A DNA stretch of 64,000 bases from Peptococcia bacterium (lineage in GTDB: Bacteria > Bacillota > Peptococcia > DRI-13 > DTU073). Positions within the stretch are counted from its first letter, which is position 1. Every line of letters begins with the position of its first letter. Shown piece by piece: positions 5,418-43,283 of the stretch. The notes beneath the pieces were generated by a model. It saw nothing but the letters and a program-made list of their open reading frames with translations. It did not search any database and was not told the DNA's origin. Both the position numbers and the translations under genes were made by a program. The stretch is taken from contig JBMNJI010000005.1 of assembly GCA_050951585.1 (NCBI GenBank), positions 16,206 to 80,205 on the forward strand, in the 5' to 3' direction.

Positions 5418-5451
5418 GGTGGACATTACTCATGTTGAGGAGGTAAGCTTG

Positions 5452-6573: not shown

Positions 6574-7235
6574 TGTCTCGGCGGATGGGCAGCAAATCGT
6601 CTATTCCGATGAAACGGGCTTGAAGCTTTTGCATCTTCCTGATGGCAACGAAACGCTGCTGGCGGAGTCAGTACCGCTTGAAGAGCAAGTTGATCAAGGC
6701 TTCTTACCATCGTTCTCCCAGATTTGTCGCCGATGGGCAAAAGGTTATTACCACAATGACAGCGTATGAAGGGACAATGGGCTATACCCTGTGTGATTTA
6801 CAGACGGGTGAGGTTAAAAAATATGAGATCAGTTCGGAAGCGTCCGACACTGGCACAATCTGTTATGATAACGGCATTCTGGAGGTAAATTCATATCAGC
6901 GGGATGGAAGCGTTAAAACATTTTACCTGGATTTCAGGACGGGGGAGCTGACGGAAATACCTATTACCGAAACCGGGGATACGGGGTATATCAGGGAATT
7001 GGCCTTTGTGGGGAAAAATTATGCGGCTTATCTTACTACACGGCAGGATAATAACAACAACGATAACAATATGGCATATCTAAACCGGATCAAGCTGGAT
7101 AATTTCCGGCTGGAGGAACAATTAGTCTCGGTTAAAGCGGCGGAGACCACTCTTTTGGGTGTTTTGGCCGACGGACGGATCCTCTTCTGGTATAGTCTGA
7201 ATCCTTCCGAAAGCGGGATCTGCATCACCCGCTAG
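6533..7235 (+). CDS. Hypothetical protein with TolB/beta-propeller-like repeats, one frameshift near 6705-6715
   Basis: GAGGAG RBS 8 nt before ATG 6533. ORFs 6530..6769 and 6642..7235 join as ...QGFLPS/FSPRFVADGQKVITT. Repeated DG.Q/K.V motifs. It could instead be a frameshifted continuation of 5452..6573. Confidence 0.45.
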
Positions 7236-7377
7236 GAAGAGCTTATTTTTCAAAAAGCTTTCTTCAAAAACAGTCAGGTGTTAGCCGGCAGGGGCAGGTG
7301 GGATTAGGGGCTAGTGCCAGGGAGAATTTCGGGTACAGGGGGGATAGATTATTTTTAATGAACAGGAAATAAGAAGA

Positions 7378-8994
7378 TTGAAAATATTGATTTGCATCTT
7401 GGTTTTGCTTGTGTTGATGCGGTTTTCGGTAGGTTTTCTTGAAGCAAAAGTATACGAAGTTACCGATGAAAGTCAATTTTTGCATGCAGTGAGGTCCGCA
7501 GATGGGGACACCATTAAACTGCTGAATGATCTTCAGGTAAATAACAAGACGGTAAATGTTAAGAATGATGATATAACAATTGATCTTAATGGTCATATAC
7601 TGCATCTTGTCAATAATGAAGATACTGCCTTATTGGTTGACCATGGTTCTGTGAAGCTGACCGGTGAGGGGGAGTTAAATGTAAGCGGTGTTGGCCCTGC
7701 TGTAATTGTGAAGAATAAAGGCAGGGCGGAAGTGACAAATGTGACGGCAACTACTCAGGGTCTTTTTGGTGTGGGTGTTTTTGGTGCGGGTAGTTCCCTT
7801 GAAGTAAACGGCAGTGTTCAGGTGGATGTGACCGGCGAACATGGTTATGGCGTGGGGGCAGATTCTGGAGGATACGCCCTTGTCAAAGGCGATATTAAAG
7901 TAAAAGTAACCGGGAAAGCATGTGCTGCACTTGCCTCCGGTTTTGCCAGTTCGGTGGAAGTGCTCGGGAACATTGAAGTAAACGGTGAGTACGGGATGGG
8001 TGCGCTGGCCAATAGTGGCGCCCGCTGTGTAGTCAAAGGTGAGACGAGGATTAATGGTGGGTTTGGTACCGCTGCATATGCCGAAGGAGAAGGCAGTACC
8101 GTCGAAGTATGGCGTGATGTCATAGTAAGCGAAGGCGGTGTTGGGGCAAGTGCATTTGAAGGGGGACAAGTATTTGTTCATGGCAATGCGCTGGCCTTTG
8201 GCGACTTCAGTACCAGTGTCTATATTAGGGCAGAAGAAGGTTCGCAGAATCCCGGCTCAGTAATTATTGGCGGTAATGCTCAGTCAAGCGGCAGGACATG
8301 CTCAGGCGTGGTGGTGGAGAATTGCGGAAAGGTTATTATCAAAGGTGATGTGCTGACCGAAGGCCGTTTTATTGAACCATGGAAAACGGCACAAGGAATT
8401 ACGCGCGGAGGAAGGTACGCTGGTACCGGTACTTGTCTGCGTGCTGACAGACCAGAAGAAATAGTTGAAGAGTGTTCTATTACTGTTTTGGGTAATGTGG
8501 TGGGCAAAGAAAGTACTGGCGTAAGCACCCTTGGGGGAGATGTTACGGTGTACGGCGATGTCACCACTTCGGAAGGTTATTCTGCGGGCAGTGCCTCTTT
8601 TGGCGGGACGTTAGAAATATACGGCAATGTTACAACAACCGGGGATGATGCTGAAGCAGTAAGCGTCGGACTCGATGGGACTGTTAAGGTGACAGGTGAG
8701 GTCAAGGTAGTGGGAAGCAATTCTTATGCGGTGCATTGTTCGCAAGGAACCGCGACGATTCTCGGCGCTGTCACCGCAATAGGAGAAAATAGTGTTGGGG
8801 CATATGCCAGCATGGGCGGAACGCTTACCATAGACGGGAAGATCACCGCACCAAAGAAGCTCCAGATAAACAATTCGATAATGAGGGCGGAGGATGGGAT
8901 TGCCGGAGGGGGCGCTTCTCAAGATTATTTGATGTACATTAGGTTTGATACAATTGTCGATAAAAACACGACTATCCGGGTGAAAAATAGATAA
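7378..8994 (+). CDS. Secreted beta-solenoid-like repeat protein (paralog of 19907..22192, lacking SLH domains)
   Basis: N-terminal signal peptide. A ~23-25 aa periodic G-x-x-V-x-V-x-G-[DN]-[VI]-x-V repeat runs through the protein. The N-terminal ~110 aa align with the 19907 protein (DGDTI.LL.D, I.LNGH.L, LTGEGELNVSG, GRAEVTNVTATT). Confidence 0.7.
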   Translation: MKILICILVLLVLMRFSVGFLEAKVYEVTDESQFLHAVRSADGDTIKLLNDLQVNNKTVNVKNDDITIDLNGHILHLVNNEDTALLVDHGSVKLTGEGELNVSGVGPAVIVKNKGRAEVTNVTATTQGLFGVGVFGAGSSLEVNGSVQVDVTGEHGYGVGADSGGYALVKGDIKVKVTGKACAALASGFASSVEVLGNIEVNGEYGMGALANSGARCVVKGETRINGGFGTAAYAEGEGSTVEVWRDVIVSEGGVGASAFEGGQVFVHGNALAFGDFSTSVYIRAEEGSQNPGSVIIGGNAQSSGRTCSGVVVENCGKVIIKGDVLTEGRFIEPWKTAQGITRGGRYAGTGTCLRADRPEEIVEECSITVLGNVVGKESTGVSTLGGDVTVYGDVTTSEGYSAGSASFGGTLEIYGNVTTTGDDAEAVSVGLDGTVKVTGEVKVVGSNSYAVHCSQGTATILGAVTAIGENSVGAYASMGGTLTIDGKITAPKKLQINNSIMRAEDGIAGGGASQDYLMYIRFDTIVDKNTTIRVKNR

Positions 8995-9121: not shown

Positions 9122-9390
9122 CAGTTATGCGGAAGAAAAGTAGGTCAGTGGAATTTTACAGGGAGTGGGCGTCGTGACTGCAAGCGCTCATAGAAGGAAG
9201 CCGATTGAAGTTCTCTTCCAAACTGCCAGGGTGAATGAAGTAGTCCTGGCCGGAGACTTCCCCGTTACAAGGAAGAGGGTATCGGAGTGATCCCGTACCT
9301 TACAGCTGGAGTGGGCAGTATTTCTGCCAACTAGGGTGGTACCGCGAAAGTAAGTTTTTCGTCCCTACAGGATGAAAAACTTTTTTTATT
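9122..9390 (+). promoter_or_regulatory. T-box leader 1 with terminator
   Basis: Stem I base CAGTT/AACTG and GGAAGA/TCTTCC, with AGTA and AGGGAG elements. Stem II-like CCAGG..CCTGG and stem III GGCAG..CTGCC. Conserved T-box GGGTGGTACCGCG at 9334-9346. Terminator AGTTTTTC..GAAAAACT plus a T-run. Confidence 0.8.
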
Positions 9391-29322: not shown

Positions 29323-30093
29323 GTGGAGATTACCGTCAAAGGTGTGAAAGTGAATTATCATGTATCCGGCGAGGGAAAAGACCTGATTCTGTTGCCCGGC
29401 TGGGGCTGCACAATCCAGACCGTTGCCCCGGTCCACCGGCATTATGAAGCTTTTTTCCGGACTTATTCCCTTGACTGGCCGGGCTTTGGACAAAGTGAGG
29501 AACCGCCGGAGCAGTGGGGGGTAGCCGATTATGCGGCCTTCTTATGTGCTTTTCTGGAGGAGTTGGGGATCGAAAACCCGCTGATTATCGCCCATTCCTT
29601 TGGCGGTAGAGTGGCCATATACAGTGCGGGGGCGCTGCAATACCCCTTTGCAAAGCTTGTTCTGACCGGCAGTGCCGGCATCAAACCGCGGCGCGGTCTG
29701 GATTATTATGTTAAGGTTTACACATATAAATTAGCAAAGCGGATCATCATGCTGCCCGGCTTGCGGCAGCTGTTCGGGGACGTGTATGAGCAGTACCGGA
29801 AGAAGGCAGGCTCGGCGGATTATCAAAATGCCTCCGAGCGGATGAAAAAGGTCTTTATTAAAGTGGTAAACGAGGATTTAACGAAATATCTGCCGGAAAT
29901 AAAAGTACCCACCCTGCTGATTTGGGGGGAGAATGATACGGCTACGCCGCTCCGGGATGCCCGGATCATGGAGAAAAACATTCCGGGGTCAGGCTTGGTT
30001 GTTTTTAAGAATTGCGGCCACTATGCCTTCCTCGAGATGCTAAACCATTTTCTCAGCGTCACCGATAGTTTCTTCAAGGAGGAGATGCGCTGA
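29323..30093 (+). CDS. Alpha/beta-fold hydrolase
   Basis: Nucleophile elbow AHSFGG, LPGWG oxyanion region and a C-terminal GH (NCGHYAF). AGGAGGG RBS before GTG 29323. Confidence 0.8.
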   Translation: MEITVKGVKVNYHVSGEGKDLILLPGWGCTIQTVAPVHRHYEAFFRTYSLDWPGFGQSEEPPEQWGVADYAAFLCAFLEELGIENPLIIAHSFGGRVAIYSAGALQYPFAKLVLTGSAGIKPRRGLDYYVKVYTYKLAKRIIMLPGLRQLFGDVYEQYRKKAGSADYQNASERMKKVFIKVVNEDLTKYLPEIKVPTLLIWGENDTATPLRDARIMEKNIPGSGLVVFKNCGHYAFLEMLNHFLSVTDSFFKEEMR

Positions 30094-30264
30094 TGCATGA
30101 ATTTGCCCCGATCCCTGTTTTGCAGAGCAACGAGGGCTGGAAGGATGTTGAGATCAGGGAAAACGGCGAGCAATTAGTAGCTGTAATGGTATTGTAAACC
30201 GAACTGTAATACAATATTATATAAAGATGTATATTGGAAAGTATAATTAACGGAGGTAAAGTGC

Positions 30265-31965
30265 TTGTTCGGTAAGATTATTTTCGTGACGGCTCTTTTA
30301 GCCGGCTTGTCCTTCCTGGTTTTTAAACTGAATTATCATTTTCATATGCTGCAATTGAATTCATATATGAACGGTCGCTATTTATTGTGGCTCAGACGAA
30401 ATCCCGGCAAGGCATTCCGCCCCGTGGATTTTCTGCCCTTTTTTGTTCTTCTGCCGTTTGTGCTGCGGCTTTTGGCTCCTGAGACGGAAACGGCCGGGAT
30501 ACTGCCGGTCGTCTTGTATGCGGCCTTTGGAGCAGTATCGCTCGGCTTAATCTTTTTTCGGGAAAAAACGAAAGCGAAAAAGAAGATCAAATATACGGCC
30601 AGGGTGAAGAGACTGTTTACCGCCGCCGCGTTGTTGTGCCTCCTCCTTTTCGGGGTGCTGTGGCAACTTCAGGCGGAGCCTTTGCTCTTCCTTTTGCTGG
30701 TGGGCTTCTTGCAGCCTTTTGTGGCCGGACTGGTTTTCGTCAGCAATATCATCCTTATCCCTGTGGAAAAAGGCATCAACTATTATTATTTCCGGGATGC
30801 CCAGAAAAAAGTGCAGGCCATGCCCCATTTAAAAGTAATCGGCCTTACCGGCAGTTATGGGAAAACCAGCACGAAACATATCGTGCAGAAAATCTTGTCC
30901 CAGAAATATAACGTGCTGATGACGCCCGGTAGCTATAACACGACCATGGGGGTTATTCTGACCATCCGGCAAAACTTGAGTCCGCTTCATGACTTCTTTA
31001 TCATGGAGATGGGGGCGAAAAAGCCCGGCGATATTACGGAGATTTGTCAATTGGTGCAGCCGGACTACGGGATTTTAACGTCGATTGGGCCACAACATCT
31101 GGAGACTTTTCAGACGATCGAGAACGTGCAAAAAACCAAATTTGAATTAATCCGGGCTCTGCCTTCCGCAGGGTTTGCCGTGGTGAATGGGGATGATGCC
31201 TGCATCGCGGCAGGCAGGGAACGATACGGGAACAAGGAGCTCCGTTATATTTCCTATGGAATTGCCGAGGACGAGAGCGCGGCTGTGGGTGCGGAGGAAC
31301 CGTGCGGCACGGCCAAGACCGCTTTTGCGGAGAAACCGGCGCAGAAGGTGCAGTTCAGAGCAACAAAGATCAGTTATTCCGAAAATGGAACGGAGTTCAC
31401 GGTTGTGCGCAGCGGGGCTGGGGAAGAACAGGAATATTCTTTCCGCACCGGCTTGCTGGGGCAACACAACCTGTACAATATTTTGGCCGGGATTTCCCTT
31501 GCCTTTACCCTCGGCATGGACTATAAAGCGATTTATGCGGGCGTAAAAGACCTTACCCCCATTGAGCACCGTTTGCAGATCAAACGCCAGCACGATTATG
31601 TGCTGATTGATGACGCCTATAATGCCAACCCTGTCGGGACGCGCATGGCCCTGGAGGTTTTGCGGCTCATCAGCGGCAATAAAAAAATTCTCATTACGCC
31701 CGGCATGATTGAATTGGGCAGTCAGGAATACGAGTTGAATAAGGCTTTTGCCCGGCAGGCGGCCGAGGTTTGTGACTATATTCTGCTGGTCGGCGAAAAA
31801 CGCACCCAACCCTTGCAGGATGGCTTGCGGGAGGCAAATTATCCGCCGGAAAAATATACGGTGGTCAAGGATATTTTCACGGCTTTTGCTCACCTGGAGA
31901 AGATTCGGGAGAAGAATGACGTCGTCTTAATTGAGAATGATTTAACCGACGATTATGATGAGTAG
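30265..31965 (+). CDS. murF: MurF-type UDP-MurNAc-tripeptide--D-Ala-D-Ala ligase with a ~170 aa N-terminal membrane domain
   Basis: GLTGSYGKTSTK P-loop and the MurF-typical IDDAYNANP. The first ~170 aa form 4-5 hydrophobic helices in place of the usual Mur N-terminal domain. GGAGG RBS before TTG 30265. Confidence 0.7.
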   Translation: MFGKIIFVTALLAGLSFLVFKLNYHFHMLQLNSYMNGRYLLWLRRNPGKAFRPVDFLPFFVLLPFVLRLLAPETETAGILPVVLYAAFGAVSLGLIFFREKTKAKKKIKYTARVKRLFTAAALLCLLLFGVLWQLQAEPLLFLLLVGFLQPFVAGLVFVSNIILIPVEKGINYYYFRDAQKKVQAMPHLKVIGLTGSYGKTSTKHIVQKILSQKYNVLMTPGSYNTTMGVILTIRQNLSPLHDFFIMEMGAKKPGDITEICQLVQPDYGILTSIGPQHLETFQTIENVQKTKFELIRALPSAGFAVVNGDDACIAAGRERYGNKELRYISYGIAEDESAAVGAEEPCGTAKTAFAEKPAQKVQFRATKISYSENGTEFTVVRSGAGEEQEYSFRTGLLGQHNLYNILAGISLAFTLGMDYKAIYAGVKDLTPIEHRLQIKRQHDYVLIDDAYNANPVGTRMALEVLRLISGNKKILITPGMIELGSQEYELNKAFARQAAEVCDYILLVGEKRTQPLQDGLREANYPPEKYTVVKDIFTAFAHLEKIREKNDVVLIENDLTDDYDE

Positions 31966-32051
31966 AAGCACGAAAAAGGAAGTGAACAGTGAGAGCAGGA
32001 AGTGGGTCGTGTGAAATAAATAGTGGGAAGAAGATGGGAGGTCGGATTGAA

Positions 32052-33215
32052 TTGAAAATTAAAGTAGGGGTGTTTTTCGGGGGGAAATCAACTGAGCACG
32101 AAGTGTCGGTCATTTCGGGAATTCAGGCCGCACATAGCTTAGATAAGGAAAAATATGAGGCAGTGCCTGTCTATGTGACCAAACAGGGGACTTTTTATAC
32201 TGGGGCGGAGCTCCTGGATATTACCGAGTATAAAGATATGGAGGCACTATTACACAAAGCCACGCCGGTAGCCATCATCAGGGATCAGGAGCAAAATAAG
32301 GTTTTCCTTTATAAGTATCCCTTCGGGCTCTTTAAGAAGCCCCTTGCTTATCTGGATGTGATTCTGCCGGTGATGCATGGCAATCTCGGCGAAAACGGCG
32401 CGTTCCAGGGCTTTTTTGAGGTGCTGGACATCCCTTATGCCGAATGTGGGGTCCTTCCTTCTGCCGTGGGCATGGATAAGGTGATCACGAAATATGTCCT
32501 GCGCAGTGCCGGTATCCCGGTAATCGACTGGTACAGCTTTTACGGTCATGACTGGCTCACTGACGAGACCAGGCTCATCGAGGAAATGGAGGAGCAGATC
32601 GGCTACCCCTTAATTGTGAAGCCGGCGACAGGTGGCTCCAGCATTGGCATTTCCATTGTCCATAACCGGCAGGAGCTCAAAGACGGGGTGGAATTAGCCC
32701 GCTCCATGGCGGAAAAGATTATTGTGGAAAAACTGGTGCAGAATATTAAGGAGGTCAACTGTTCGGTGCTTGGAGACAGTGAGGATGCGGAGGCTTCTGT
32801 CTGCGAAGAGCCGGTCAGCAGCAAGGATATCCTCTCCTTTGACGATAAGTATAGCAACAACAGCACCAAAGGGATGTCGGGCGCGAAAAGAAAGATTCCG
32901 GCCGATATATCCGCGGAGATGGCCGGTGTCATTCAGGATCTCTCCCGGATTGTCTTTAATCTTTTAGGTTGTAAAGGCGTAATTCGCATTGATTATATTA
33001 TTGATCAGGACACCAATCAGGTTTACCTGAATGAGCTGAATACCATCCCCGGTTCGTTGGCTTTTTATCTCTGGGAGAACAGTGAGCTTACCTACGCCGG
33101 GCTCCTGGATCAATTGCTGACAATGGCGATTCGTCATCACCAGAAGGCGAACGCGTTAACCTATTCCTACGAGAACAATCTTTTCAATTCGGGGATCCAG
33201 GGCTTCAAGAAATAG
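32052..33215 (+). CDS. ddl: D-alanine--D-alanine ligase
   Basis: KIKVGVFFGGKSTEHEVSVISG N-terminus and an ATP-grasp core (IVKPA.GGSSIGI, ELNTIPG). GGAGG lies 9 nt before TTG 32052. ATG 32034 or GTG 31989 are alternative starts. Confidence 0.85.
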   Translation: MKIKVGVFFGGKSTEHEVSVISGIQAAHSLDKEKYEAVPVYVTKQGTFYTGAELLDITEYKDMEALLHKATPVAIIRDQEQNKVFLYKYPFGLFKKPLAYLDVILPVMHGNLGENGAFQGFFEVLDIPYAECGVLPSAVGMDKVITKYVLRSAGIPVIDWYSFYGHDWLTDETRLIEEMEEQIGYPLIVKPATGGSSIGISIVHNRQELKDGVELARSMAEKIIVEKLVQNIKEVNCSVLGDSEDAEASVCEEPVSSKDILSFDDKYSNNSTKGMSGAKRKIPADISAEMAGVIQDLSRIVFNLLGCKGVIRIDYIIDQDTNQVYLNELNTIPGSLAFYLWENSELTYAGLLDQLLTMAIRHHQKANALTYSYENNLFNSGIQGFKK

Positions 33216-33543: not shown

Positions 33544-33645
33544 GGAGGCGATCGGTAAGAGAATTCTGTTAAAGGATTTAACAGGACAGCAAAAGTTGAT
33601 GCAATCTTTTTACTGAAAAAATAGGAATTGAAGGGAGTAATGAAA

Positions 33646-34312
33646 ATGAAAAAAACAAGAATGTTACTTGCTACTCTGGTTTGTGCTGTAATGCTGATGG
33701 GCGTTGGCTACGCCGCATGGTCTGATTCGGTTACCTTGGCAGGAACGGTGAATACCGGGGAACTGAATGTACGTTTTGAAAATGATCAGTTTGAGCCATT
33801 TGTTCCTACCACATATGCAAGTGGTTATGCGACGGCAGTTTTCAACAAACTTGAAGAAGAGAATATTGAATTCACTTTTGACAAATTACACCCCGGAGTC
33901 GTTGGCGTTGTTGATGTAGCCGTTAAAAATGCCGGTGATTTTCCGGCTAAATTAGCTAATGCAACTGTAATCACTACGGGTGATGAAGTATTAAAAGACG
34001 ATATTTATGTGCAGGCCTTGTATTACAAAATGGGAACCAACGGTTTACCTGTCTGGGAACATTCAACGCTACCCCATATGTTTCTCTTGATCAATTAGAG
34101 ACAACTTTAGAAAATGCTTTAAGTGCTTTTGAATTGGCACCCGGGGAATCAATTGTCTTTGGTGTTCCGGAAGGCGAAGAATCAACTCTTGATTTAAACA
34201 ATGACGGTGTAAATGAAGAGTGCTTTATCTTCTACTTTGACTATGATTCCGGTAATGAAACAATGGATAAGACCATTACTATTGATTTAGAGATGGATTG
34301 GGAAATTGCGTA
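33646..34312 (+). CDS. TasA/camelysin-like secreted protein A (SipW-type signal peptide); one frameshift near 34060-34080
   Basis: AAGGGAG RBS, then ATG 33646. MKKTRMLLATLVCAVMLMGVGYAAWSDS. Internal LHPGVVGVVDVAVKNAGDFP. The shifted frame continues ..NATPYVSLDQLE..ITIDLEMDWEIA to TAA 34312. Confidence 0.8.
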
Positions 34313-34349
34313 ATCACTAATACGGCGCTGAATTGAATTATCATCCTGC

Positions 34350-34381
34350 AGACCCGCCACCTTTTTGGCGGGTCTTTTTTT
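34350..34381 (+). terminator. Strong rho-independent terminator after gene A
   Basis: Stem AGACCCGCC / GGCGGGTCT followed by T7. Confidence 0.8.
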
Positions 34382-34559
34382 AGCTATGAGGGAGTATTAG
34401 TTTTGGGTAATACAAAGATTATTTCCGGACAAGCCTAATAACGACAATATATACAGAAAAAGTAAGATATAATATTAAACAGTATAGAAAGACAAAGTCA
34501 AAGTAATCTATTATTCTGCTCTTTACTTTATCTAAAGTTGAATGGGAGGGTTATTGGCG

Positions 34560-35194
34560 ATGAGACGATATCTGATACTATTATTGGGTTGCGTCTTCTG
34601 GGGTTTGGCGATAGTGCCGGGGGTATATTCTTCCTGGCAGGACCAGTTATACATCAGAGGGGAAATCCGGCTAAATGATGTTTCTCCTCTACGTTCTGTC
34701 GAACAGGGATCAGACTCAAATCTAGCACGGAAAGTGGATGAACATAAAGGTACTGTGGCGGGGACGGGAGAAGTGCCGGACCATAAAGCGGAGGAAGGGA
34801 GAGGTTGCGGAAGAACTGGAGACGGGATTTCAAGCAGTGCCTGCAGCAGTGTTCGAGGGCAGTACCCGAAGCAGGAATTAAAGAAAGCCTTCCAGTGAGC
34901 GAGCCGGTTGTAGCAGAAACGACAGGAGGCAGTGCAACGGCAGATTCGGCAGTAACCGGGGAAGACCCTGGGCAGGATCCAAGCGAGGCGATAACTAATA
35001 CTGTAACTGATGATATCATCGGAGATACAGCAGGGGAAGCAACCGAAGAAATAACCGAAAGCAGGGGTGAAACAGCAGGGGAAGCAGCTTCTGAAACAGT
35101 CGAGAAAAGCGCTGATGTAAAGGCGGAGAATGAAAACAATAATGCGGCGGCAGAAGCAGGAGGAGAAATGGAAACCGGCGCTGGAGCAGAATGA
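34560..35194 (+). CDS. Signal-peptide/N-terminal-strand-only protein B with an acidic low-complexity tail; probably two frameshifts (~34800, ~34865)
   Basis: GGGAGGG RBS, then ATG 34560. MRRYLILLLGCVFWGLAIVPGVYSSWQDQLYIRGEI. The three reading frames join as ..EEGR/EVAEELETGFQAVPAAVFEGST/PEAGIKESLPVSEP.. into a T/G/E/A/D-rich tail ending at 35194. Confidence 0.55.
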
Positions 35195-35261
35195 AGCACA
35201 AAAAGTCGCAAGAATAATTATTATAGAAGAAAATGTAAATTAAAATTTTCAGCTATTCTTA

Positions 35262-35296
35262 AAGGACTGTCCCGATGTGGCCAGTCCTTTATTTTA
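35262..35296 (+). terminator. Terminator after gene B
   Basis: Stem AAGGACTG / CAGTCCTT followed by a T-rich tract. Confidence 0.7.
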
Positions 35297-35398
35297 AGTA
35301 TTATAGAAAAGAATAAAATATTTTTTAATTAGCAACTAAAAACGACAAAAATTTCAATTGCGATTATATATAATATCTAGTAATATAATGTCTAGTAA

Positions 35399-35974
35399 GT
35401 GAAAAAGGGAGAGGCGGAATCAATTGTGCGTTTTTTCTATCCACTTTTCAGTATAATCTTCATATTCTGCATGGGCGGGTTTGGGATCAGTTACGCCACC
35501 TGGAGTGATACCTTAACATTAGAAAGCACCGTATCTACCGGTTATATTAATACCATTTTTACTGATGCTGAATTATCAAAGAACGGCAATGAGGGAGAAG
35601 GGAAAGGAAATTGTCGGGGGGGATCTGGTTCAGACGCGGATTTTGGAACAGTTGTTATTGATGAAGACGGCAAGAGTCTTTTGGTCAGCATAAAGGAAAA
35701 AGGGAACTACTATCTGGATTTTACGCTTGAAAATAAAGGGACATTACCTGTCGAAATTGAGATTCCTGATACGAAGGGAAAAAAGCCCGATGGCGAAGGA
35801 CAAGCCATTAAGATAGAGTTTAAGGATAAAGGAAATAAAGAGGACCGGATACTATTCGTTGATGACAGTATGCAAGGTCGTATGGAGATAAAAGTGCAAC
35901 CTCCTCATTGGAAAGATGGTTTGGAGGGTAACTTTTCAGTTACGCTCGAATCTCGCCAGGCGAGTCTTAAATAA
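35399..35974 (+). CDS. TasA/camelysin-like secreted protein C
   Basis: ..FIFCMGGFGISYATWSDTLTLESTVSTG. Internal YYLDFTLENKGTLPVEIEI. The start is GTG 35399 or in-frame GTG 35426. Confidence 0.7.
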   Translation: MKKGEAESIVRFFYPLFSIIFIFCMGGFGISYATWSDTLTLESTVSTGYINTIFTDAELSKNGNEGEGKGNCRGGSGSDADFGTVVIDEDGKSLLVSIKEKGNYYLDFTLENKGTLPVEIEIPDTKGKKPDGEGQAIKIEFKDKGNKEDRILFVDDSMQGRMEIKVQPPHWKDGLEGNFSVTLESRQASLK

Positions 35975-36125
35975 ACAGGCGCTAAGTTGATATTTGAGGT
36001 GCAATAATTTATAAGGGGGGAGTACATCAATATTAAGGAGATAAGAGAAGCACCTTTAATTAAATTGACAGCATTGTAAATTCAGAAAAGTATATAGTTT
36101 TTAAAACGAAGGGAGATCAAAAACA

Positions 36126-36653
36126 ATGAAAAAAGCAAGACTTTTAATTGCTGCATTAGTATGTGCAGTAATGATGATGGGAGTAGGTTATGCCTTATTT
36201 AACGACACTACTGTTGTATCTGCAACAGCAAAGGCGGGTAACTTTGATGTGGATTTTATTGACGCAAGAGGTCCAGTGGAAGTTAGTCCCGAAAATGTAA
36301 GAGTTTACCTTGATAGAGATAATTGTGATCAGGATTTACTCCATTGCACAATTAGTGGTATATTTCCAGGTCAGACGGTAGTAATCCCCATTCCTGTTAA
36401 AAACAACTGTGCGGTAGGAGCAAAATTAGTTAATGTTGAGTGTAAACGTGTTAACGGAGACTGGGGCTTATATAATCAATTCCAGATTTCTGGTGAGAAT
36501 AATAAAAAAATAGCTGCTGGGGCAAGTGACACCTGTAATTTAACAGTTATGTTAAATAGTGAAACTGATACCAAATACCAAGAACAAACGGTTGAGTTCA
36601 CAGTAGATCTAGAATGGGAACAATACCTAAAGACAATAAATACCCAATCGTAA
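36126..36653 (+). CDS. TasA/camelysin-like secreted protein D
   Basis: AAGGGAG RBS. MKKARLLIAALVCAVMMMGVGYALFNDT. IFPGQTVVIPIPVKNNCAVGAKL. C-terminal VEFTVDLEWEQ. Confidence 0.85.
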   Translation: MKKARLLIAALVCAVMMMGVGYALFNDTTVVSATAKAGNFDVDFIDARGPVEVSPENVRVYLDRDNCDQDLLHCTISGIFPGQTVVIPIPVKNNCAVGAKLVNVECKRVNGDWGLYNQFQISGENNKKIAAGASDTCNLTVMLNSETDTKYQEQTVEFTVDLEWEQYLKTINTQS

Positions 36654-36679
36654 ACATAACCTAACTATGTCTTTTAATT

Positions 36680-36713
36680 GCAGGATGGGCAAATGCTCAT
36701 TTACCCATCCTGC
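36680..36713 (+). repeat. Conserved 34-nt hairpin, copy 1 (after gene D)
   Basis: GCAGGATGGGCAAAT-gctc-ATTTACCCATCCTGC. It has no downstream U-tract; an A-run follows instead. Confidence 0.75.
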
Positions 36714-36757
36714 CGTAAAAAAATTTATATTTACTTAATGAAGGGAGAACAAAAGTA

Positions 36758-37303
36758 ATGAAGAGAGCAAGGATTTTAATTGCCACATTAGTGTGTGCAG
36801 TAATGATGATGGGAGTAGGTTATGCAGCATTTACCGACAGTCTAAAATTAAATGCATCACTGGCAACGGGTACTATGAATGTAATTTACGGAACAGATAC
36901 AAAAGTTGATAGAGCTGACAGTGAAGTAGTAGCTACTGTTACACGTTCTGACGATAAGAAGACCCTTGATTGCACAATTGCAAACTTATATCCTGGGCGG
37001 GGTGCAGTTTTTAGCATTCAGGTGAAAAATCTGAGTGGTGTGCCTGTAAGCTATACCAACTGTATACCTACCGGATTAAGCGAGTACGAAAAGAGCATTC
37101 TTGATTTTGATTTCGCTAGAGATGATTACAACGCTGAGATTCCGGCAAACGGTGAGCGCACTTATAAGGTTTTCGTCAGACTGAGCGAAGACGTTGATAA
37201 TACTGTGCAAAACAAAACTTATACATTTCAACTTAGATTTGATTGGGAACAAGTTATTCAAGACAGTGTAACCCAAGGTTTACCTATAGGATCCGCGAGT
37301 TAA
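36758..37303 (+). CDS. TasA/camelysin-like secreted protein E (close paralog of D)
   Basis: AAGGGAG RBS. MKRARILIATLVCAVMMMGVGYAAFTDS. LYPGRGAVFSIQVKNLSGVPVSY. C-terminal YTFQLRFDWEQ. Confidence 0.85.
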   Translation: MKRARILIATLVCAVMMMGVGYAAFTDSLKLNASLATGTMNVIYGTDTKVDRADSEVVATVTRSDDKKTLDCTIANLYPGRGAVFSIQVKNLSGVPVSYTNCIPTGLSEYEKSILDFDFARDDYNAEIPANGERTYKVFVRLSEDVDNTVQNKTYTFQLRFDWEQVIQDSVTQGLPIGSAS

Positions 37304-37340
37304 TTAGTATTGTCTGAACTGAGGTTTAATTCCGTTGGGT

Positions 37341-37374
37341 GCAGGATGGGCAAATGCTCATTTGCCCATCCTGC
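37341..37374 (+). repeat. Conserved 34-nt hairpin, copy 2 (after gene E)
   Basis: GCAGGATGGGCAAAT-gctc-ATTTGCCCATCCTGC, a perfect 15-bp stem that is near-identical to 36680..36713. Confidence 0.75.
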
Positions 37375-37433
37375 CATAATAAAAACTATATTAATTTGAG
37401 AGTGCTTAGCGTACAATTGGAGGTTATCTCGTC

Positions 37434-38342
37434 ATGAAAAAATATATTACTATTATAATGATATGTTCGTTCCTGGGATTAGCAATGATTCCGGGAGTAT
37501 ACTCCGCTTGGGGAGAATCGTTACAGATCACGGGAACTGTGCAGATAGGCGAAGACGACATTGAATGCCCTATTCCGGAGTGTAAAAGGATATGGAACTT
37601 AATATTAGCGATGCTTAATGATATTGATAAATGTTCCTTAAGGGATCTTCTCGCTTGTGAAGACGATTTTGACATAGCTGCATTAATAGCGTTTCTTGAA
37701 GACATAGACAGTATTGATGATGGCATTATAAGCAACCTTAAATGGCTAGAAGGTTTTAATTTCGGCGGTTTTTCCGGTTCTAATGGAACGATGATGCTTG
37801 CCGGTGGGGACATGGAAATGATGACAATTCCGCAGGAAACACAACAGCCAGCCGCACCGCCTGTACAGGCGCCCTCGATGCCACCGGAAGGAGGGCAGGA
37901 TATTGCGGATAATCATAAGGGAAATACTGCCCAGGAGCGTACAACGGGGGATACAGCGGGAGGACCAGCGGATGCTGGTGACACCGGCGACAACGGACAG
38001 CAAACTGAGGATAATATAACGGATAATACCGGCGGCGCTGATCTTCTCGGCGCAGGTGATCCTGTTGGTGCAGATGATATTGTCGATGATGGCAATGATG
38101 TAGCCGGTACAGGGAATGACACTATTTCCAAAGGTAATGATCCTGTCCCTGAGACAACGGGGGAAAGCGGCCGGGAAGATGGGACGGCAGAGAGCGGTGC
38201 CGGTGATAAGAGCGGTTCCGGGAGCGCAGAAGGAAACAGTGATGATACCGGCAATAAAACCAATGAAGGAAACAGCGCTGGTGGCGCTGGCAACGATGGG
38301 GAATCCGGTGCAGGGAACAGTGATAGTACGATAGAGGAGTGA
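37434..38342 (+). CDS. Signal-peptide/N-terminal-strand protein F with a Cys-containing helical segment and a ~170 aa acidic G/D/T/N/E-rich tail
   Basis: GGAGG RBS. MKKYITIIMICSFLGLAMIPGVYSAWGESLQITGTVQIG. The tail has no hydrophobic core. Confidence 0.75.
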   Translation: MKKYITIIMICSFLGLAMIPGVYSAWGESLQITGTVQIGEDDIECPIPECKRIWNLILAMLNDIDKCSLRDLLACEDDFDIAALIAFLEDIDSIDDGIISNLKWLEGFNFGGFSGSNGTMMLAGGDMEMMTIPQETQQPAAPPVQAPSMPPEGGQDIADNHKGNTAQERTTGDTAGGPADAGDTGDNGQQTEDNITDNTGGADLLGAGDPVGADDIVDDGNDVAGTGNDTISKGNDPVPETTGESGREDGTAESGAGDKSGSGSAEGNSDDTGNKTNEGNSAGGAGNDGESGAGNSDSTIEE

Positions 38343-38411
38343 GCAGAGGGGAAATTAGCAAAAATAAATGAAAAACACAGGGGGACAACCGGGTTTGACG
38401 GATGGAGGCTT

Positions 38412-38654
38412 TTGCTGCTGAGAAAATATCTGAGATTGATTCTGCTTTGTGTTATTGGCGGGCTGTTGCTGATTCCGGGCACCGATGGGAGTTGGAATCA
38501 GGTCCTGGATGTGGAGGGGCTCGTGAGGCTTCCGGATAATTACATATTTGATGAGGTAGTGAGTCAAGATGGCCATAAGGCGCTGGATTTTGCTAGGGAT
38601 GGTTTCGTTCATGATTATACTGACGAATACGAACCTCATTCCCTTGACGAATAA
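38412..38654 (+). CDS. Small signal-peptide/N-terminal-strand protein G
   Basis: MLLRKYLRLILLCVIGGLLLIPGTDGSWNQVLDVEGLVRL shares the motif of B and F. The TTG start has poor SD spacing, so the start is uncertain. Confidence 0.5.
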   Translation: MLLRKYLRLILLCVIGGLLLIPGTDGSWNQVLDVEGLVRLPDNYIFDEVVSQDGHKALDFARDGFVHDYTDEYEPHSLDE

Positions 38655-39735
38655 TATTAATTTTATCTATTTTGGACGACCACTTCTATGGTTCGGTGTG
38701 GCCGCGACAGTATACTGCTTTCCGCGCACCAGGGCAGCCGGCCGTTTGAGTTTACGCCGCTTTGTGCTTAATTTGGCGATTGGGGCAGCGGTTATCAATA
38801 TCCTCTTTATGATGGTGGGGGGAATGATTACGGGCTTGGGCAAAAGCCCTTATGCGGTGGGACTGGTCACTTCAACGATTAATTTTATATACATTTCCTG
38901 TTTTGTGCTGGGACTGGAGGCAACACGCTCGTTTTTAGTCAACAGTTATAAAGGGAAAAGAGCATATCTTACAATTGCCCTAGTCAGTTTTTTCTATTTG
39001 TTTACTGAAATCTCTTTGGGGGAAATTCTGAATTTTAGTAACGGTTTAGAGTTTGTGCGTTTTTTTGGGAGTGAGTTTTTACCTGCTTTGGCCCAGAGTA
39101 TTTTAACTACCTATTTTGCTTTTCTGGGCGGATTTGCTCCGGCGGCGGTATTTCACGGGATTTTGCTGGCTTTCGAATGGTTCAGCCCGATCTTACCTGA
39201 TTTAACGTGGCCGATGAAAACTTTTCTGGGTTGCTTCATTCCAGCTTTTTCCCTGCTGGTGGTGCGGCATTTCTATCTGTTACAGGCCCACCAGATCAAA
39301 AGAAATTCTTCAGAAAGTGAAGAATTATTCGGCTGGCTGGTGACGAGTATTATTTCGGTAGCGCTGATTTGGTTTGCCGTCGGTATTTTCCCGATTTATC
39401 CTTCCGTGATTGTCACCGGTAGTATGGAACCAATGATCAAACCGGGCGATCTTGTTTTGGTGCAAAAAATCGACGGGGAGAAGGTTTGTCTCAATGATGT
39501 GATTCAGTATTATGATCCCGAAAGGGAGATTAGTATAACCCATCGGGTAATTGCCATTAATCGGACAGACAAGATAACGCTGACGACCAAGGGAGACAAT
39601 AACACATCTGCAGATACGGATTCGGTTTTATTAGGACAGGTAAAGGGAAAGGTCCTTAAGGTTGTCCCCAAAATGGGTTGGCTGACCCTTTTCTTAAGGA
39701 GTAATCAGCCGATTCCGGAAGGGGTAGAGAATTAA
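38569..39735 (+). CDS. Polytopic membrane domain fused to a SipW-type (ER/archaeal-type) signal peptidase I
   Basis: C-terminal VTGSMEPMIKPGDLVLVQK, ITHRVI and TKGDNN match the Ser-His SipW class. The N-terminal ~270 aa hold about six hydrophobic helices. The start is uncertain (ATG 38569/38599 or TTG 38644), and the ORF overlaps gene G. Confidence 0.8.
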   Translation: MAIRRWILLGMVSFMIILTNTNLIPLTNNINFIYFGRPLLWFGVAATVYCFPRTRAAGRLSLRRFVLNLAIGAAVINILFMMVGGMITGLGKSPYAVGLVTSTINFIYISCFVLGLEATRSFLVNSYKGKRAYLTIALVSFFYLFTEISLGEILNFSNGLEFVRFFGSEFLPALAQSILTTYFAFLGGFAPAAVFHGILLAFEWFSPILPDLTWPMKTFLGCFIPAFSLLVVRHFYLLQAHQIKRNSSESEELFGWLVTSIISVALIWFAVGIFPIYPSVIVTGSMEPMIKPGDLVLVQKIDGEKVCLNDVIQYYDPEREISITHRVIAINRTDKITLTTKGDNNTSADTDSVLLGQVKGKVLKVVPKMGWLTLFLRSNQPIPEGVEN

Positions 39736-39767
39736 CACGAGGAAAGTGTTTGATAGGGGGAGTTTCA

Positions 39768-40946
39768 ATGGTAGAACTGGTAAAAAAGGTCAAAAAAGTC
39801 GGGATGCCGTATCAGCTTAGGCTTTTCTTGCTCAGTATTGTTTCGGTGGTCTTCCTCGCTTTACTTGCTGCGCTTCTGGTGAACAGCATGGGTCCGCGCA
39901 CGGAGGAGCAGGAGATTACGAATTATCAGTATCACCAAAAGGGGGAAATCACCTATGAGGTCGCTTTAAACGATAATCTGCTATACGGGAACAAGGTCCT
40001 GGGCATGAATAATGTTTATCCTTCTAAATATGTGAAACAGGTTACGGCCGATCTGAAATATGATTTTAACGGTAATAAGCGTGGCACAGTCTCCGGGCAA
40101 TACATGGTTGTGGCCACGGTTCAAGGCATTCAAATGGAAAACCAGGCGGAAAAAGTTTTGTGGAGTAAAGATTTTGTCCTAGAACCGGCGACACCCTTTT
40201 CGGATGAGGTCACGGAAACAAGCCGGGTCATTATGCAGAAAAAGCTGGTGATCCCGTTCCAGGACTTTAATGCGTTTGCGCTCCAGGTGCAGCAGGATAC
40301 CGGGATTCTCTCCAGTGTTGCTTTAAAAGTGAAGTGCCTGATCAAGACAGAGGCGGAGACGGAATACGGGATGATTCAGGAAGAGCTCACGCCCGGTTTT
40401 CGCTTGCCTTTGTGCATGACCTATTTTGAGATTACAGGAGATTTGACCCAGGAGAAGGAAGGGGCTTTGACGGAAACAGTCATGCAAAATATTCCTCCTA
40501 ACCGCACTCTGTTAAGGGTTTTGGGAGGCGGCGCCGCCCTTTGTTTGCTGTTGCTTTTGGGGTTGCTCTTCTTTGTCCGGGGAACCAAACCGGATGCATA
40601 TCAAAAGCGGATTAAGGAGATCTTTAAAAAATATGAGGAAAGACTTGTTGCTTTAGGACAGGAATTACCGGGAGACGCGGCGGTCGGAAAGAAGGGGACT
40701 GTTAGTACGGAGAAGTATATCCGGGTGAAAACGGTCGACGACTTGGTCCGTGTCGCCGATGAAATAAGTCGGCCGGTCTATTATCTGGAGCGGGGACTTG
40801 CGGGGGAGAAAGGTTTCACCTTTTATGTCATCAGTGAAACGAATATCTTTACTTATGAGCTTAAGCCGACTCCGGGCAGTAAGACTTCCCCTATGCAGGA
40901 GGAGCAATATCCCCAAAAGCCGGGACAACAAGACATCAAACTCTAG
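39768..40946 (+). CDS. Bitopic membrane protein, DUF5305-like
   Basis: GGGGGAG RBS, then ATG 39768. N-terminal TM (LFLLSIVSVVFLALLAALLV), a ~210 aa extracytoplasmic domain, a second TM (GGGAALCLLLLLGLLFFV), then a ~115 aa cytoplasmic tail. The family assignment is by recall of the architecture and its adjacency to a signal peptidase. Confidence 0.65.
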   Translation: MVELVKKVKKVGMPYQLRLFLLSIVSVVFLALLAALLVNSMGPRTEEQEITNYQYHQKGEITYEVALNDNLLYGNKVLGMNNVYPSKYVKQVTADLKYDFNGNKRGTVSGQYMVVATVQGIQMENQAEKVLWSKDFVLEPATPFSDEVTETSRVIMQKKLVIPFQDFNAFALQVQQDTGILSSVALKVKCLIKTEAETEYGMIQEELTPGFRLPLCMTYFEITGDLTQEKEGALTETVMQNIPPNRTLLRVLGGGAALCLLLLLGLLFFVRGTKPDAYQKRIKEIFKKYEERLVALGQELPGDAAVGKKGTVSTEKYIRVKTVDDLVRVADEISRPVYYLERGLAGEKGFTFYVISETNIFTYELKPTPGSKTSPMQEEQYPQKPGQQDIKL

Positions 40947-41264: not shown

Positions 41265-43283
41265 ATGAATTTTCTTTCGATGGGAAAAAGGCATAGGGTG
41301 TTGGTTTTGCCGTTGCTGCTTTTCTGTTTGCTTTGACTGACTGTATGTACAGAGGAGGTAGCTGCTTTTAGTGGTACAGGGAGCGGAGGCATAGCTGATC
41401 CGTACATAATATTGACGGCGGAGCAATTGAATGAAGTCAGAGAGGAGCTGACCGCTCACTATCAGTTAGGGGCTGATATTGACCTGAGTGTATATGAAAA
41501 TTGGGTGCCAATTGGGGATTGGGAAAACAGTTTTACCGGTTCTTTTGATGGCAACGGTTATGTCATTAGTAATATGACCATCGATATGCCTGAGGAATAT
41601 TATTTAGGTTTATTTGGAGTTGCGTGGGGCGGGTCTTCATTAAACAACGTAAAATTAGAAAATGCAAGTGTGGTTGGAGCCGGATGTGTTGGAGGTTTAG
41701 CAGGAGATTGCGCAGCAAATACGGTAAATAACTGTTCAGTAAGGGGTAGGGTAACTGCACTCAGCGATTCTTATGCGGGTGGGCTGATTGGGGGAAGCTC
41801 CAGCGAAGTCAACAACTGTTATATGATCGGAGAAGTAGCAGGCAGAAGTGCGACAGGTGGACTACTGGGCGGAAATAACAATGAGATTAGAAACTGTTAT
41901 GCGATAGTTAGTGTATCTGCACCGGCATCTAATTATGTGGGTGGTTTGGTTGGAGAGAATAACGATAGCATTATAGACTGTTATGCTGTCAGCGCGGTAA
42001 TTGGTAATCGACAGGTGGGAGGTTTGGTCGGGCGCAATAGTGATGTAATTAGGAACTGTTTTTCCGTTGGCAGTGTAGAAGGAGTGAATTATTGCGGTGG
42101 ATTAGCCGGTACATCTTCTTATATGGCAGAAAACTGTTATAGCCATAGTAGCGTGTCAGGAAGTACTAATACCGGTGGTTTAATTGGGGCCGATTCTGCT
42201 ACAATTACGAATTGTTATGCTGCCGGGTTGGTGACCGGTGAAGGCGAAAACTTTGGCGGATTATGCGGCGATGCTGATTCTATTATCACTTCCTCCTATT
42301 ACGACTCAGATACTACCGGGCAGACCGATGAAGGAAAGGGTGTCGGAAAAACAACGGATGAAATGCAACAGCAAGGTACTTTTGGCGGCTGGGATTTTGC
42401 TGAGGTTTGGGGACTGGTTGCCGGGAAGAATGATGGTTATCCGTATTTGTTAGCTTTTGCGGATAATGAGGCGGATTTAGCTGATTTATCCGTGAGTGCG
42501 GGGACCTTAAGCCCGGTTTTTGCTGACACGGAACGGGATTACACGGTCAATGTGGCATACGGTACGGCTGTTTTGCAGGTAGTTCCCGAGTGTGAGGCTG
42601 AGACTGCTTCATTAGCGGTTACTGTCAACGGAGAAACCGTATCCGCGACTGAAGATGCTTATGCGGCGCCCCTCAATGTGGGGGAAAACCTGATCCGGAT
42701 TGTGGTCACAGCGGAAGATGAGATGACCGGTACGGTCTACCGGCTTAGGGTTAACCGGGGCGAGGCGGATACAAACGCGGATTTGGCTGGTTTATCCTTA
42801 AATGAAGGTAATGTGCCGTTAGAGTTTACCGGAGATATAACCGGTTATAATCTTACGGTAAGTAACAAGGTGCGCAGCCTGTCGGTGAAGCCGGTAACCG
42901 TAGAGGAGACGGCCGTCGTGACAGTCAATGGGGTAGCAGTTAGCAGTGGGGAAAACTCAGAGCCGATTGCCCTGCGGACTGGCAGTAATGTGGTCACCAT
43001 TCAGGTTGTGGCCGAAGATGGGACGGAAAAAACATATACATTGAACATCAAGCGAAAACACAAATCGCAGACCAGCACAACGAGCATAACCGAAGAAACC
43101 GAAGAACAGCAAACCCCGGAAGAAGAGGGACAAGCTGACAACCAGGCAAGTAACGATGATTCCGGACTAGCCGATAACCACAAAAAACCAGGCAGTACTG
43201 GATATGACAATATTCAATGGGGAGAATTTATAAAATGGCTACTTTCAAATCTTTCGAAATTGGCATTGTTGCGATTAATCTAA
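41265..43283 (+). CDS. Secreted GLUG-repeat protein with cadherin-like beta-sandwich domains; in-frame TGA at 41334-41336 inside the signal peptide
   Basis: ATG 41265 is in the same frame as the 41412 ORF (MNFLSMGKRHRVLVLPLLLFCLL*LTVCTEE..). Repeated GGLAG/GGLIG/GGLVG..NCY units, then ADLADLSVSAGTLSPVF and ADLAGLSLNEGNVPLEF domains. Confidence 0.7.

Follow-up and report, generated by a model that had tools for sequence, protein, structure and literature searches.

Proteins with a donor strand but no subunit body form a conserved family in AbpX-type fibre loci of Clostridia and may act at the fibre end

We analysed 64,000 nucleotides of a Peptococcia bacterium (assembly GCA_050951585.1, contig JBMNJI010000005.1, positions 16,206-80,205, forward strand), hereafter called the window. 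At 33.6-41 kb it carries a fibre locus whose genes all lie on the + strand in the order A-B-C-D-E-F-G-peptidase-DUF5305. Three of the products, B (34560..35194), F (37434..38342) and G (38412..38654), have a signal peptide and a segment resembling the N-terminal donor strand of the fibre subunits encoded around them (A, C, D and E), with no subunit body behind it. We conclude that B, F and G are members of a conserved, unnamed family of such strand-only proteins, which belongs to AbpX-type fibre loci of Clostridia. On the basis of homology, conservation pattern and synteny, we give somewhat better than even odds (about 0.55) to the reading that these proteins are a natural minimal TapA, filling the free acceptor groove at the fibre end as initiator and/or cap while a polyanionic tail projects from it.

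Three proteins with a donor strand and no body

Each of the three proteins starts with a short signal peptide followed by x-W-x-x-x-L-x-[IV]-x-G-x-[IV]-x-[LIV]. A longer motif that the first-pass annotation of this DNA had described as common to them ([IV]PG[VT][YD][SG][SA]W.[DEQ].L.[IV].G.[IV]) was indeed found three times in the six-frame translation of the window, at 34614 (B), 37488 (F) and 38472 (G), against an expectation of 7e-10 from amino-acid composition. This expression was fitted after the fact, and we gave more weight to independent tests. First, a profile of strand-only proteins aligned in register with the N-termini of 62 AbpX-like bodies (hhalign probability 96.3%, E=2e-9, 41 columns); the alignment spans the signal peptide and the donor strand, with signal peptide on signal peptide and W on W, which bears out the parallel with the beta-sandwich paralogs that had been noted. 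Second, we built a position-specific scoring matrix (PSSM) from 120 body proteins, over the first 16 residues that follow their cleavage site, and scored B, F and G with it against 3966 control 16-mers. F reached 15.9 bits, on a par with E, its paralog (15.0), and with the donor strand of the AbpX structure (15.1); B, at 1.1 bits, lay above every control, and G, at -5.0 bits, was exceeded by 0.025% of them. Both measures show homology between the mature N-termini of these three proteins and the donor strand of their cognate subunits.

Behind the strand, neither Pfam nor NCBIfam gave any match for B, F or G, nor did the profile hidden Markov model (HMM) of the body, in agreement with the earlier remark that no beta-sandwich is recognisable in them. 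A single-sequence AlphaFold2 (AF2) model of F, weak overall (mean pLDDT 42) and used only for its secondary-structure tendencies, contained helices only at residues 47-106, coil after 107 and no beta domain. Because no jelly-roll body with an acceptor groove (NLYPG ... N-G-[ST]-[IV]-P) was detected, we do not regard these proteins as fibre subunits. To say that they "keep" only the N-terminus, as had been done, is nevertheless misleading: they did not arise recently by truncation of A, C, D or E, but form an old separate family.

Spread, synteny and conservation of the family

A genome scan based on the peptidase yielded 28 related loci, from Peptococcia metagenome-assembled genomes (MAGs; 64-69% identity) to other Clostridia at 33-49% (Clostridiaceae, Tissierellaceae, Lutisporaceae, Geosporobacter and Paratissierella). 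A strand-only gene is present in 24 of the 28, so that the motif is kept in orthologous and distant loci alike, where its absence had been named as grounds for giving up the idea. The products share a short signal peptide, [SP]G[GV]Y[GS], the strand x-W-x-x-x-L-x-I-x-G-x-I-x-V and a tail of variable length, which is either acidic and S/T/D/E/N-rich or E/K/Q-rich and coiled-coil-like. No strand-only gene was found in L002, L005, L023 or L025, and L024 likewise gave no match. L002 is a long-read Peptococcia MAG in which the gene (9243-9386) is a frameshifted remnant; at 3706-7481 it also has a module of two genes, for an A-like subunit of 222/230 aa and a subunit of 202 aa, duplicated in tandem.

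The position of the gene is equally constant. In 23 of the 24 loci the next gene downstream is that of the peptidase, separated from it by a few bases or overlapping with it (in L008 the strand-only gene lies downstream instead), and L040 has a strand-only gene likewise adjacent to or overlapping the peptidase gene. Its usual neighbour on the other side encodes a minor subunit that resembles protein C of the window, with a long basic n-region and an STGYIEP motif. Because this C-like gene is the near-constant upstream neighbour, we consider that the C-like subunit and the strand-only protein may act as a pair. The C-like class is found in L006-L027 (for example, L007 8530-9057 and L020 8476-9051) and in L037 (4412-4981), with an Arg/Lys-rich n-region and STG-Y-I-E-P-Y-F after the donor. 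On the 1.2-Mb contig L037, a C-like and strand-only pair (4412-5693) stands between genes for a histidine kinase and a HAD hydrolase, with no peptidase or DUF5305 gene there; the pair can therefore occur away from the peptidase.

An exhaustive HMMER profile search of 1.84 billion cluster representatives gave 261 representatives at E<=1e-3, of which 64 reached E<=1e-10; in every one the match is at the N-terminus. Three members from the weak end of these matches also adjoin C-like, peptidase or DUF5305 genes. Among the best 150, the AbpX body HMM had no match in the 141 additional representatives (P0015-P0155). In a set of 154 family sequences that includes these 141, W2 is invariant (153/153), and L6 (134), I8 (131), G10 (137), I12 (124) and V14 (115) are strongly conserved, giving hydrophobic residues at alternate positions (6, 8, 12 and 14). 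Conservation then stops, about 16 residues past the predicted cleavage site. The tails of different members are not alignable. They are consistently acidic: tails of at least 20 residues average 25% D+E versus 7% K+R, and 147 of 149 are net negative. The median protein length is 136 aa (range 31-302). These proteins fall outside every Pfam and NCBIfam family, and all sources call them hypothetical.

Might the conserved segment be something other than a strand? One alternative holds that these are secreted polyanionic matrix or Ca2+-binding proteins that share with the subunits only an export and processing signal and do not join fibres, the 14 conserved residues being an exosite motif for the polytopic peptidase. 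The conserved segment does directly adjoin the cleavage site, and all substrate classes have G-x-Y-[AGS]|x-W. Recognition by signal peptidase I, however, normally does not extend 14 residues downstream, and the hydrophobic positions 6, 8, 12 and 14 with a small residue at 10 reproduce W2-I12 of AbpX, the inserted strand in the solved fibre. The consistent acidity of the tails would suit a matrix protein, as would the response of AbpX assembly to Ca2+ (bioRxiv 10.64898/2026.01.04.697558); their unconstrained sequence and length (0 to ~250 aa), with some members of 44-70 aa in all, ill fits a functional tail. Position 4 of the donor also bears on the question. It is acidic in 111 of 120 body donors (D in 105), and in AbpX this acidic residue coordinates Ca2+, whereas 84 of 153 strand-only proteins have K there, in a departure from the Ca2+-binding donor that a non-fibre role would accommodate; the window proteins have D (B), E (F) and Q (G). 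On balance, we consider the matrix-protein explanation unlikely.

The fibre subunits belong to the AbpX branch

The first-pass annotation had likened the locus to TasA fibres. This holds at the level of the TasA superfamily, but the relevant solved relative is AbpX rather than TasA proper. A profile of the major subunits of related loci matched AbpX of Pyrodictium abyssi in the PDB (9sj2) at E=2.8e-15 and the self-complemented form (9rhp) at E=1.5e-9, and a second profile (E and D of the window with 60 database homologs) matched 9sj2 at E=8.2e-16 over residues 25-167; TasA (5of1, 8aur) was reached by body profiles only at about 3e-3 to 1e-2. Reaching AbpX took a family profile: a phmmer search of the PDB sequences with D alone gave no match, and a homolog search with D alone returned only D. 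As judged from these profile matches, the paralogs A, C, D and E are members of the AbpX branch of the TasA superfamily. In addition, a polytopic signal peptidase I and a DUF5305 protein are encoded beside the AbpX-like genes, an arrangement typical of such loci. A preprint of January 2026 (bioRxiv 10.64898/2026.01.04.697558) describes the same locus type in Bacillota, with AbpX-like subunits that have a W2/acidic-4 donor strand, a dedicated signal peptidase I with ten transmembrane (TM) segments, DUF5305 and minor subunits, together with SLH or LPXTG anchors for which joining by donor-strand complementation is predicted.

The subunits of the window are A (33628..34313, donor strand AWSDSVTLAGTV), a member of the family whose profile matches AbpX 9sj2; the minor subunit C (35399..35974), with a hydrophobic, extended n-region, a likely GTG start near 35426 and the donor TWSDTLTLESTV followed by STGYI; D (36126..36653, donor LFNDTTVV), which is in the alignment that matches AbpX at E=8e-16; and E (36758..37303, donor AFTDSLKL). 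The deposited AbpX chain starts one residue ahead of W (QWSETLSLSATISTG), and we placed the cleavage at G-x-Y-A|x-W because of homology with this mature chain. The predicted sites in the strand-only proteins are PGVYS|SW in B, PGVYS|AW in F and PGTDG|SW in G. In an AF2 model of E, the body (residues 40-170) was modelled with pLDDT >90, and the N-terminal strand (24-36) was left unplaced at pLDDT <50 and not self-complemented, as would be expected of a subunit that needs a strand from elsewhere.

A, D and E have weak, N-terminal-only matches to TIGR04088 (a model of SipW-cognate signal peptides) and Peptidase_M73. We considered whether the body proteins might be precursors of ribosomally synthesized and post-translationally modified peptides, given the IMG name [quoted passage not shown], and rejected this in favour of AbpX-like structural proteins; camelysin protease was likewise rejected, the Peptidase_M73 matches being confined to the N-terminal signal region. 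Between strains, D and E show non-synonymous changes only (four versus no synonymous changes in D, two versus none in E), small numbers that hint at diversifying selection on exposed fibre subunits, and B, C, F, G, the peptidase and the DUF5305 protein are invariant or have one synonymous change. Strains L030 and L031, otherwise 98-99% identical to the window, lack E (36732-37339) as well as ~1.2 kb (41810-43049) of a downstream Glug/cadherin-like gene (41412-43283). JGI 3300060804 and SRR28624434 are examples of samples in which the strain of the window occurs.

Reading frames and relations of B, F and G

In the window, the frame of B is interrupted, and the first-pass annotation had asked for the region 34780-34880 to be resequenced. 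We aligned window positions 33990-35220 with two metagenome contigs, L029 and L030, which are independent assemblies and otherwise identical. The window has an extra G at 34803/34804 and another at 34856-34858, neither of which is present in L029 or L030, and in both contigs B is one 210-aa frame from the ATG at 34560. Because the two contigs without the extra residues give a single frame, the tail of B is real and in frame with its N-terminus, and the suspicion that the tails were frameshift artefacts can be dropped. The frame of A is also broken in the window only, by one G missing from the G run at 34055-34057; in L029, where its 5′ end is lost at the contig edge, A is intact over at least 218 aa. 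The broken frames of A and B thus look like an assembly problem and not biology. Three single-G differences in homopolymers suggest a long-read or homopolymer error profile, and other split genes in the window may share this cause.

After removal of the two spurious G residues, B comprises a signal peptide (34560-34631), the donor-like strand SWQDQLYIRGEIRLND (34632-34679) and an acidic tail up to 35194. It is preceded by a GGGAGGG Shine-Dalgarno sequence 8 nt 5′ of the ATG and has its own promoter region, sited after an intrinsic terminator (34350..34375, + strand; a 10-bp stem with 7 GC pairs, then a T run) that sets A apart from B. F (302 aa, with a GGAGG Shine-Dalgarno sequence) has its signal peptide at 37434-37505, the donor-like strand AWGESLQITGTVQIGE at 37506-37553, a helical segment (aa 45-130, 37566-37823) and a G/D/T/N/E-rich tail (aa 131-302), and lies 70 nt upstream of G. 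G was correctly described as an 80-aa protein that ends in a short acidic stretch (residues 41-80, net charge -10); its signal peptide occupies 38412-38489 and its strand, SWNQVLDVEGLVRLPD, 38490-38537.

How are the three related? The N-terminus of F is 38-43% identical to the sole strand-only proteins of L001, L003 and L004, compared with 34% to B and 30% to G. F is the syntenic ortholog, and B and G are extra paralogs of this species. The exhaustive search recovered F as P0053, B as P0045 and G as P0082, the last at E=2e-10 with G itself in the query. An HMM that included the window proteins gave 61 bits for B and 65 for F, and 55-65 bits for B, F and G versus 15-33 for the bodies; these scores are partly circular, the queries having contained the proteins scored, and an HMM excluding Peptococcia served as the control (see below). 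G bears the class signature (G10, hydrophobic 12 and 14, no T14-G15 turn), resembles many members of 44-83 aa elsewhere and was called as a gene on seven of eight contigs. We regard it as the weakest, marginal member of the family.

Could the strand-only genes be non-functional, that is, decaying 5′ fragments of subunit genes with chance open frames in purine-rich DNA, or assembly artefacts? This idea draws on the frameshifts of B in the window, on the weakness of G by independent criteria and on the tendency of low-complexity DNA to keep several frames open, as in the antisense open reading frames (ORFs) at 34654-35211 and 37913-38482. We rejected these antisense ORFs as genes, considering them by-products of the low-complexity DNA. 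B is intact in the two other assemblies, the sequence of F is identical on 15 metagenome contigs from several samples, and the 261 representatives have a conserved strand, conserved synteny and consistently acidic tails. For B and F the idea is largely refuted, and it essentially applies only to G; overall, we find it hardly credible.

Tails and the middle segment of F

Both B and F had been described as continuing into low-complexity sequence. This is correct for B (residues 41-210, net charge -29) and for the tail of F (131-302, net charge -30); residues 45-130 of F, in contrast, are not of low complexity, being 44% hydrophobic with four Cys, predicted helical and acidic. F is accordingly made of a strand, a small helical segment and a tail, not of a strand and a tail alone. 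The segment has no Pfam match and no counterpart in the other family members examined, and may be a lineage-specific interaction domain. BLAST searches with the F mid-segment and with the tails of F, B and G against all family members returned self matches only, and a TRF scan found no tandem repeats within the tails of B or F. Elsewhere, two near-identical strand-only proteins (L011, 1088-1759; L014, 8622-9452) have one and three copies, respectively, of a ~31-residue E/K-rich tail unit. Because these two differ in copy number, we conclude that the tails evolve by repeat expansion.

How might strand-only proteins act?

In the solved fibres of AbpX and TasA, each subunit (n) lends its N-terminal strand to complete the sandwich of the next (n+1), so that every fibre has one end with an unfilled groove. 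We propose that the polytopic signal peptidase I of the locus would cut each precursor after G-x-Y-[GSA], exposing x1-W2-x-x-x-L6-x-I8-x-G10-x-I12-x-V14, an amphipathic donor strand like that of AbpX subunits. With no jelly-roll body, the protein could donate a strand but accept none, and would take the single free acceptor groove at one fibre end. Filling this groove would prime the first subunit, in the initiator or chaperone role shown for TapA, and leave that end capped, and the unconserved, polyanionic and largely disordered tail would project from it. The cleavage position, the strand insertion, the position at the fibre end, the kinetic role and the function of the tail are all steps that we infer. 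TapA, whose termini are flexible, gives its N-terminus to TasA; it speeds up assembly and occurs only at a filament end (PMC10151520). A strand-only design is credible because residues 1-57 of TapA (the signal peptide and ~14 residues) suffice for function in vivo in Bacillus subtilis (bioRxiv 10.1101/794164).

The same structural evidence would serve a view of these proteins as terminators or length regulators, in which the strand enters the groove in the same way but growth at that end stops once it is incorporated; the ratio of strand-only protein to subunit would then set the length of the fibre, and three paralogs would tune it for different subunits. The coupling to the peptidase gene implies a low stoichiometry, and high TapA:TasA ratios give short oligomers only (PMC10151520), both of which agree with this view. 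The filament of TasA or AbpX, however, elongates when the strand left exposed by the last subunit is taken up by a new one. A strand-only protein would bind at the opposite, non-growing end, and elongation would not be stopped unless monomers were sequestered first. We therefore regard a terminator function as rather improbable.

A third possibility is that the proteins are uncleaved or slowly cleaved membrane tethers, whose N-terminal helix stays in the membrane while the strand holds the base of the fibre. A search for wall anchors found no LPXTG, SLH domain (searched through Pfam) or second TM segment in B, F, G or the 154 family sequences, and none of the latter has a second hydrophobic segment. 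The lack of an SLH or LPXTG anchor in the window locus, unlike many bacterial abpX loci, would give a tether something to do, and TapA was first named an anchoring protein. Against this, the -3/-1 positions (G-Y-G, V-Y-S, T-D-G) are as compatible with cleavage as those of the bodies, a strand at the membrane face could not span the Gram-positive wall, and the tails, being C-terminal to the strand, would point away from the membrane. An anchoring role of this kind seems to us very unlikely.

Returning to the initiator or cap that we favour, several observations weigh against it or against the place of B and G in it. With Peptococcia sequences excluded, the HMM gave 31.9 bits for F, 21.1 for B and 11.9 for G, and 22.7 for the body protein A, so that B and G score no better than a body; because these scores do not separate them, the class assignment of B and G rests on the absent body, G10, the hydrophobic position 14 and the likeness to F. 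G has a TTG start only 3 nt after its GGAGG, and its 3′ end overlaps the peptidase ORF in a different frame, by 86 nt (its last 28 codons) if the peptidase starts at 38569, as orthologs suggest, or by 44 nt if it starts at 38611. (Such an overlap recalls the stop/start overlap of tapA and sipW in B. subtilis.) Among L029, L030 and L032, B, F and G have no substitutions at all, so that there is no dN/dS signal of selection on the tails. Because Lys at position 4 replaces the acid, the interface of most strand-only proteins cannot be identical to that between bodies; that the Lys salt-bridges the acidic site directly is speculation. The shared post-cleavage motif could in part be a recognition element of the peptidase and not a strand. 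Finally, a Foldseek search of the PDB with the model of E returned generic beta-sandwiches only (best E=7e-3, TM ~0.3) and neither AbpX nor TasA; the floppy N-terminus of the model and the cut-off date of the library are possible reasons, and we did not use this result as evidence.

The initiator idea can be carried further, to the view that Gram-positive anaerobes generally use the family to prime AbpX-type fibres without a chaperone. Here, the machine of polytopic peptidase and DUF5305 would release a donor peptide of ~15 residues, whose first partner would be the C-like minor subunit; this pairing would open the strand of the minor subunit for the major subunits, with one primer making one fibre. 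The Lys at position 4 would make the first complementation independent of Ca2+, the tail would be a Ca2+-binding region or an entropic brush setting fibre spacing or wall transit, and the three paralogs would prime three different subunit types. That all of these parts hold jointly is doubtful.

Other features of the locus and its surroundings

The signal peptidase I gene (38569..39735, + strand) encodes a dedicated enzyme of 388 aa and of the SipW/archaeal type, in which a polytopic membrane domain of ~280 residues, with 8-10 hydrophobic segments, is fused to the N-terminal side of the signal peptidase I domain (TIGR02228, E=5.9e-22). The latter has the catalytic residues GSMEP Ser285 and THR His325. 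The DUF5305 protein (39750..40946, + strand; PF17231, E=4.6e-27) is a putative accessory subunit of the peptidase, a role proposed in bioRxiv 10.64898/2026.01.04.697558 and PMC12337348. Two small sequence features might be regulatory elements: a 15-bp tandem repeat, ATATAATATCTAGTA, present in 2.1 copies at 35368-35398 directly upstream of C, and a GC-rich stem-loop at 37345-37372 between E and F. In the window (29323-33215) and in its two closest relatives, L003 (3055-6660) and L004 (2836-6564), the fibre locus follows alpha/beta-hydrolase, murF-like and ddl genes, and DUF1294 and pyruvate:ferredoxin oxidoreductase genes lie downstream of it; the chromosomal position is the same in all three.

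Implications

The locus type, donor-strand assembly and the role of TapA are already known. Our search of the literature, including the text and supplement of the AbpX preprint, found no described family that consists of a donor strand and a disordered acidic tail alone. Donor-strand fibres of the TasA superfamily (TasA, AbpA, AbpX, Tafi and the cannulae) are coming to be seen as a basis of biofilm matrices across domains of life, and the family touches the question of how such fibres are started, capped and attached without a chaperone-usher machine. Proteins of little more than a donor strand would be the simplest possible initiator or cap, mirroring the sufficiency of TapA(1-57). The family also supplies defined peptides of 15-20 residues that might prime or inhibit fibre assembly. 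In hundreds of Clostridia genomes its genes, now annotated as "hypothetical protein", point to AbpX loci, and cultured carriers of strand-only genes exist for genetics, such as Geosporobacter subterraneus DSM 17957 (L020), Paratissierella segnis BX21 (L018) and Clostridiaceae bacterium 35-E11 (L007).

Comparison with known systems

The closest functional parallel is TapA (YqxM), likewise a secreted partner of a TasA-superfamily fibre with a signal peptide processed by the SipW-type peptidase of its own locus. Its mature N-terminus, too, resembles the donor strand of the subunit, and its gene abuts or overlaps sipW as the strand-only gene adjoins the peptidase gene. TapA is known as an initiator by strand complementation, of low abundance, with flexible termini and confined to the filament end (PMC10151520). 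B, F and G are nevertheless not members of the TapA family: no homology was detected (no NCBIfam or Pfam match at E<=1), and TapA has a complete central Ig-like domain where in B, F and G the strand is followed by no folded domain. The fibre, moreover, is here of the AbpX type and not TasA proper, and the peptidase is of the polytopic fusion type with DUF5305.

AbpX itself (Pyrodictium abyssi, 9sj2 and 9rhp) shares the aromatic residue at position 2, the hydrophobic residues at 6, 8 and 12 and the small residue at 10, and, with F and B only, the acidic residue at position 4. It differs in having a jelly-roll body and in polymerising, whereas B, F and G end after the strand without a body; most strand-only members, in addition, have Lys4 and no T14-G15 turn. 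The accessory proteins of abpX loci (bioRxiv 10.64898/2026.01.04.697558) occur in the same locus type and are also non-subunit proteins with an AbpX-type donor strand, but they carry folded domains and SLH or LPXTG anchor modules, and the strand-only family has neither.

Two more distant systems show parts of the same design. CapP (BC1280) of the Bacillus cereus group is an extracellular chaperone of the TasA-family fibre CalY, and the interaction is modulated by its C-terminal region, which is disordered and varies in its repeats (10.1101/2024.02.27.582368); its sequence is unrelated, its 150-residue DUF4047 N-domain self-assembles, and no donor-strand mimicry has been reported for it. In chaperone-usher pili, the G1 donor strand of PapD or FimC and the terminator PapH provide the precedent for a strand given in trans to complete an Ig-like fold at the fibre end, although there it is done by folded periplasmic proteins of Gram-negative bacteria, from another fold family and through an usher-driven mechanism.

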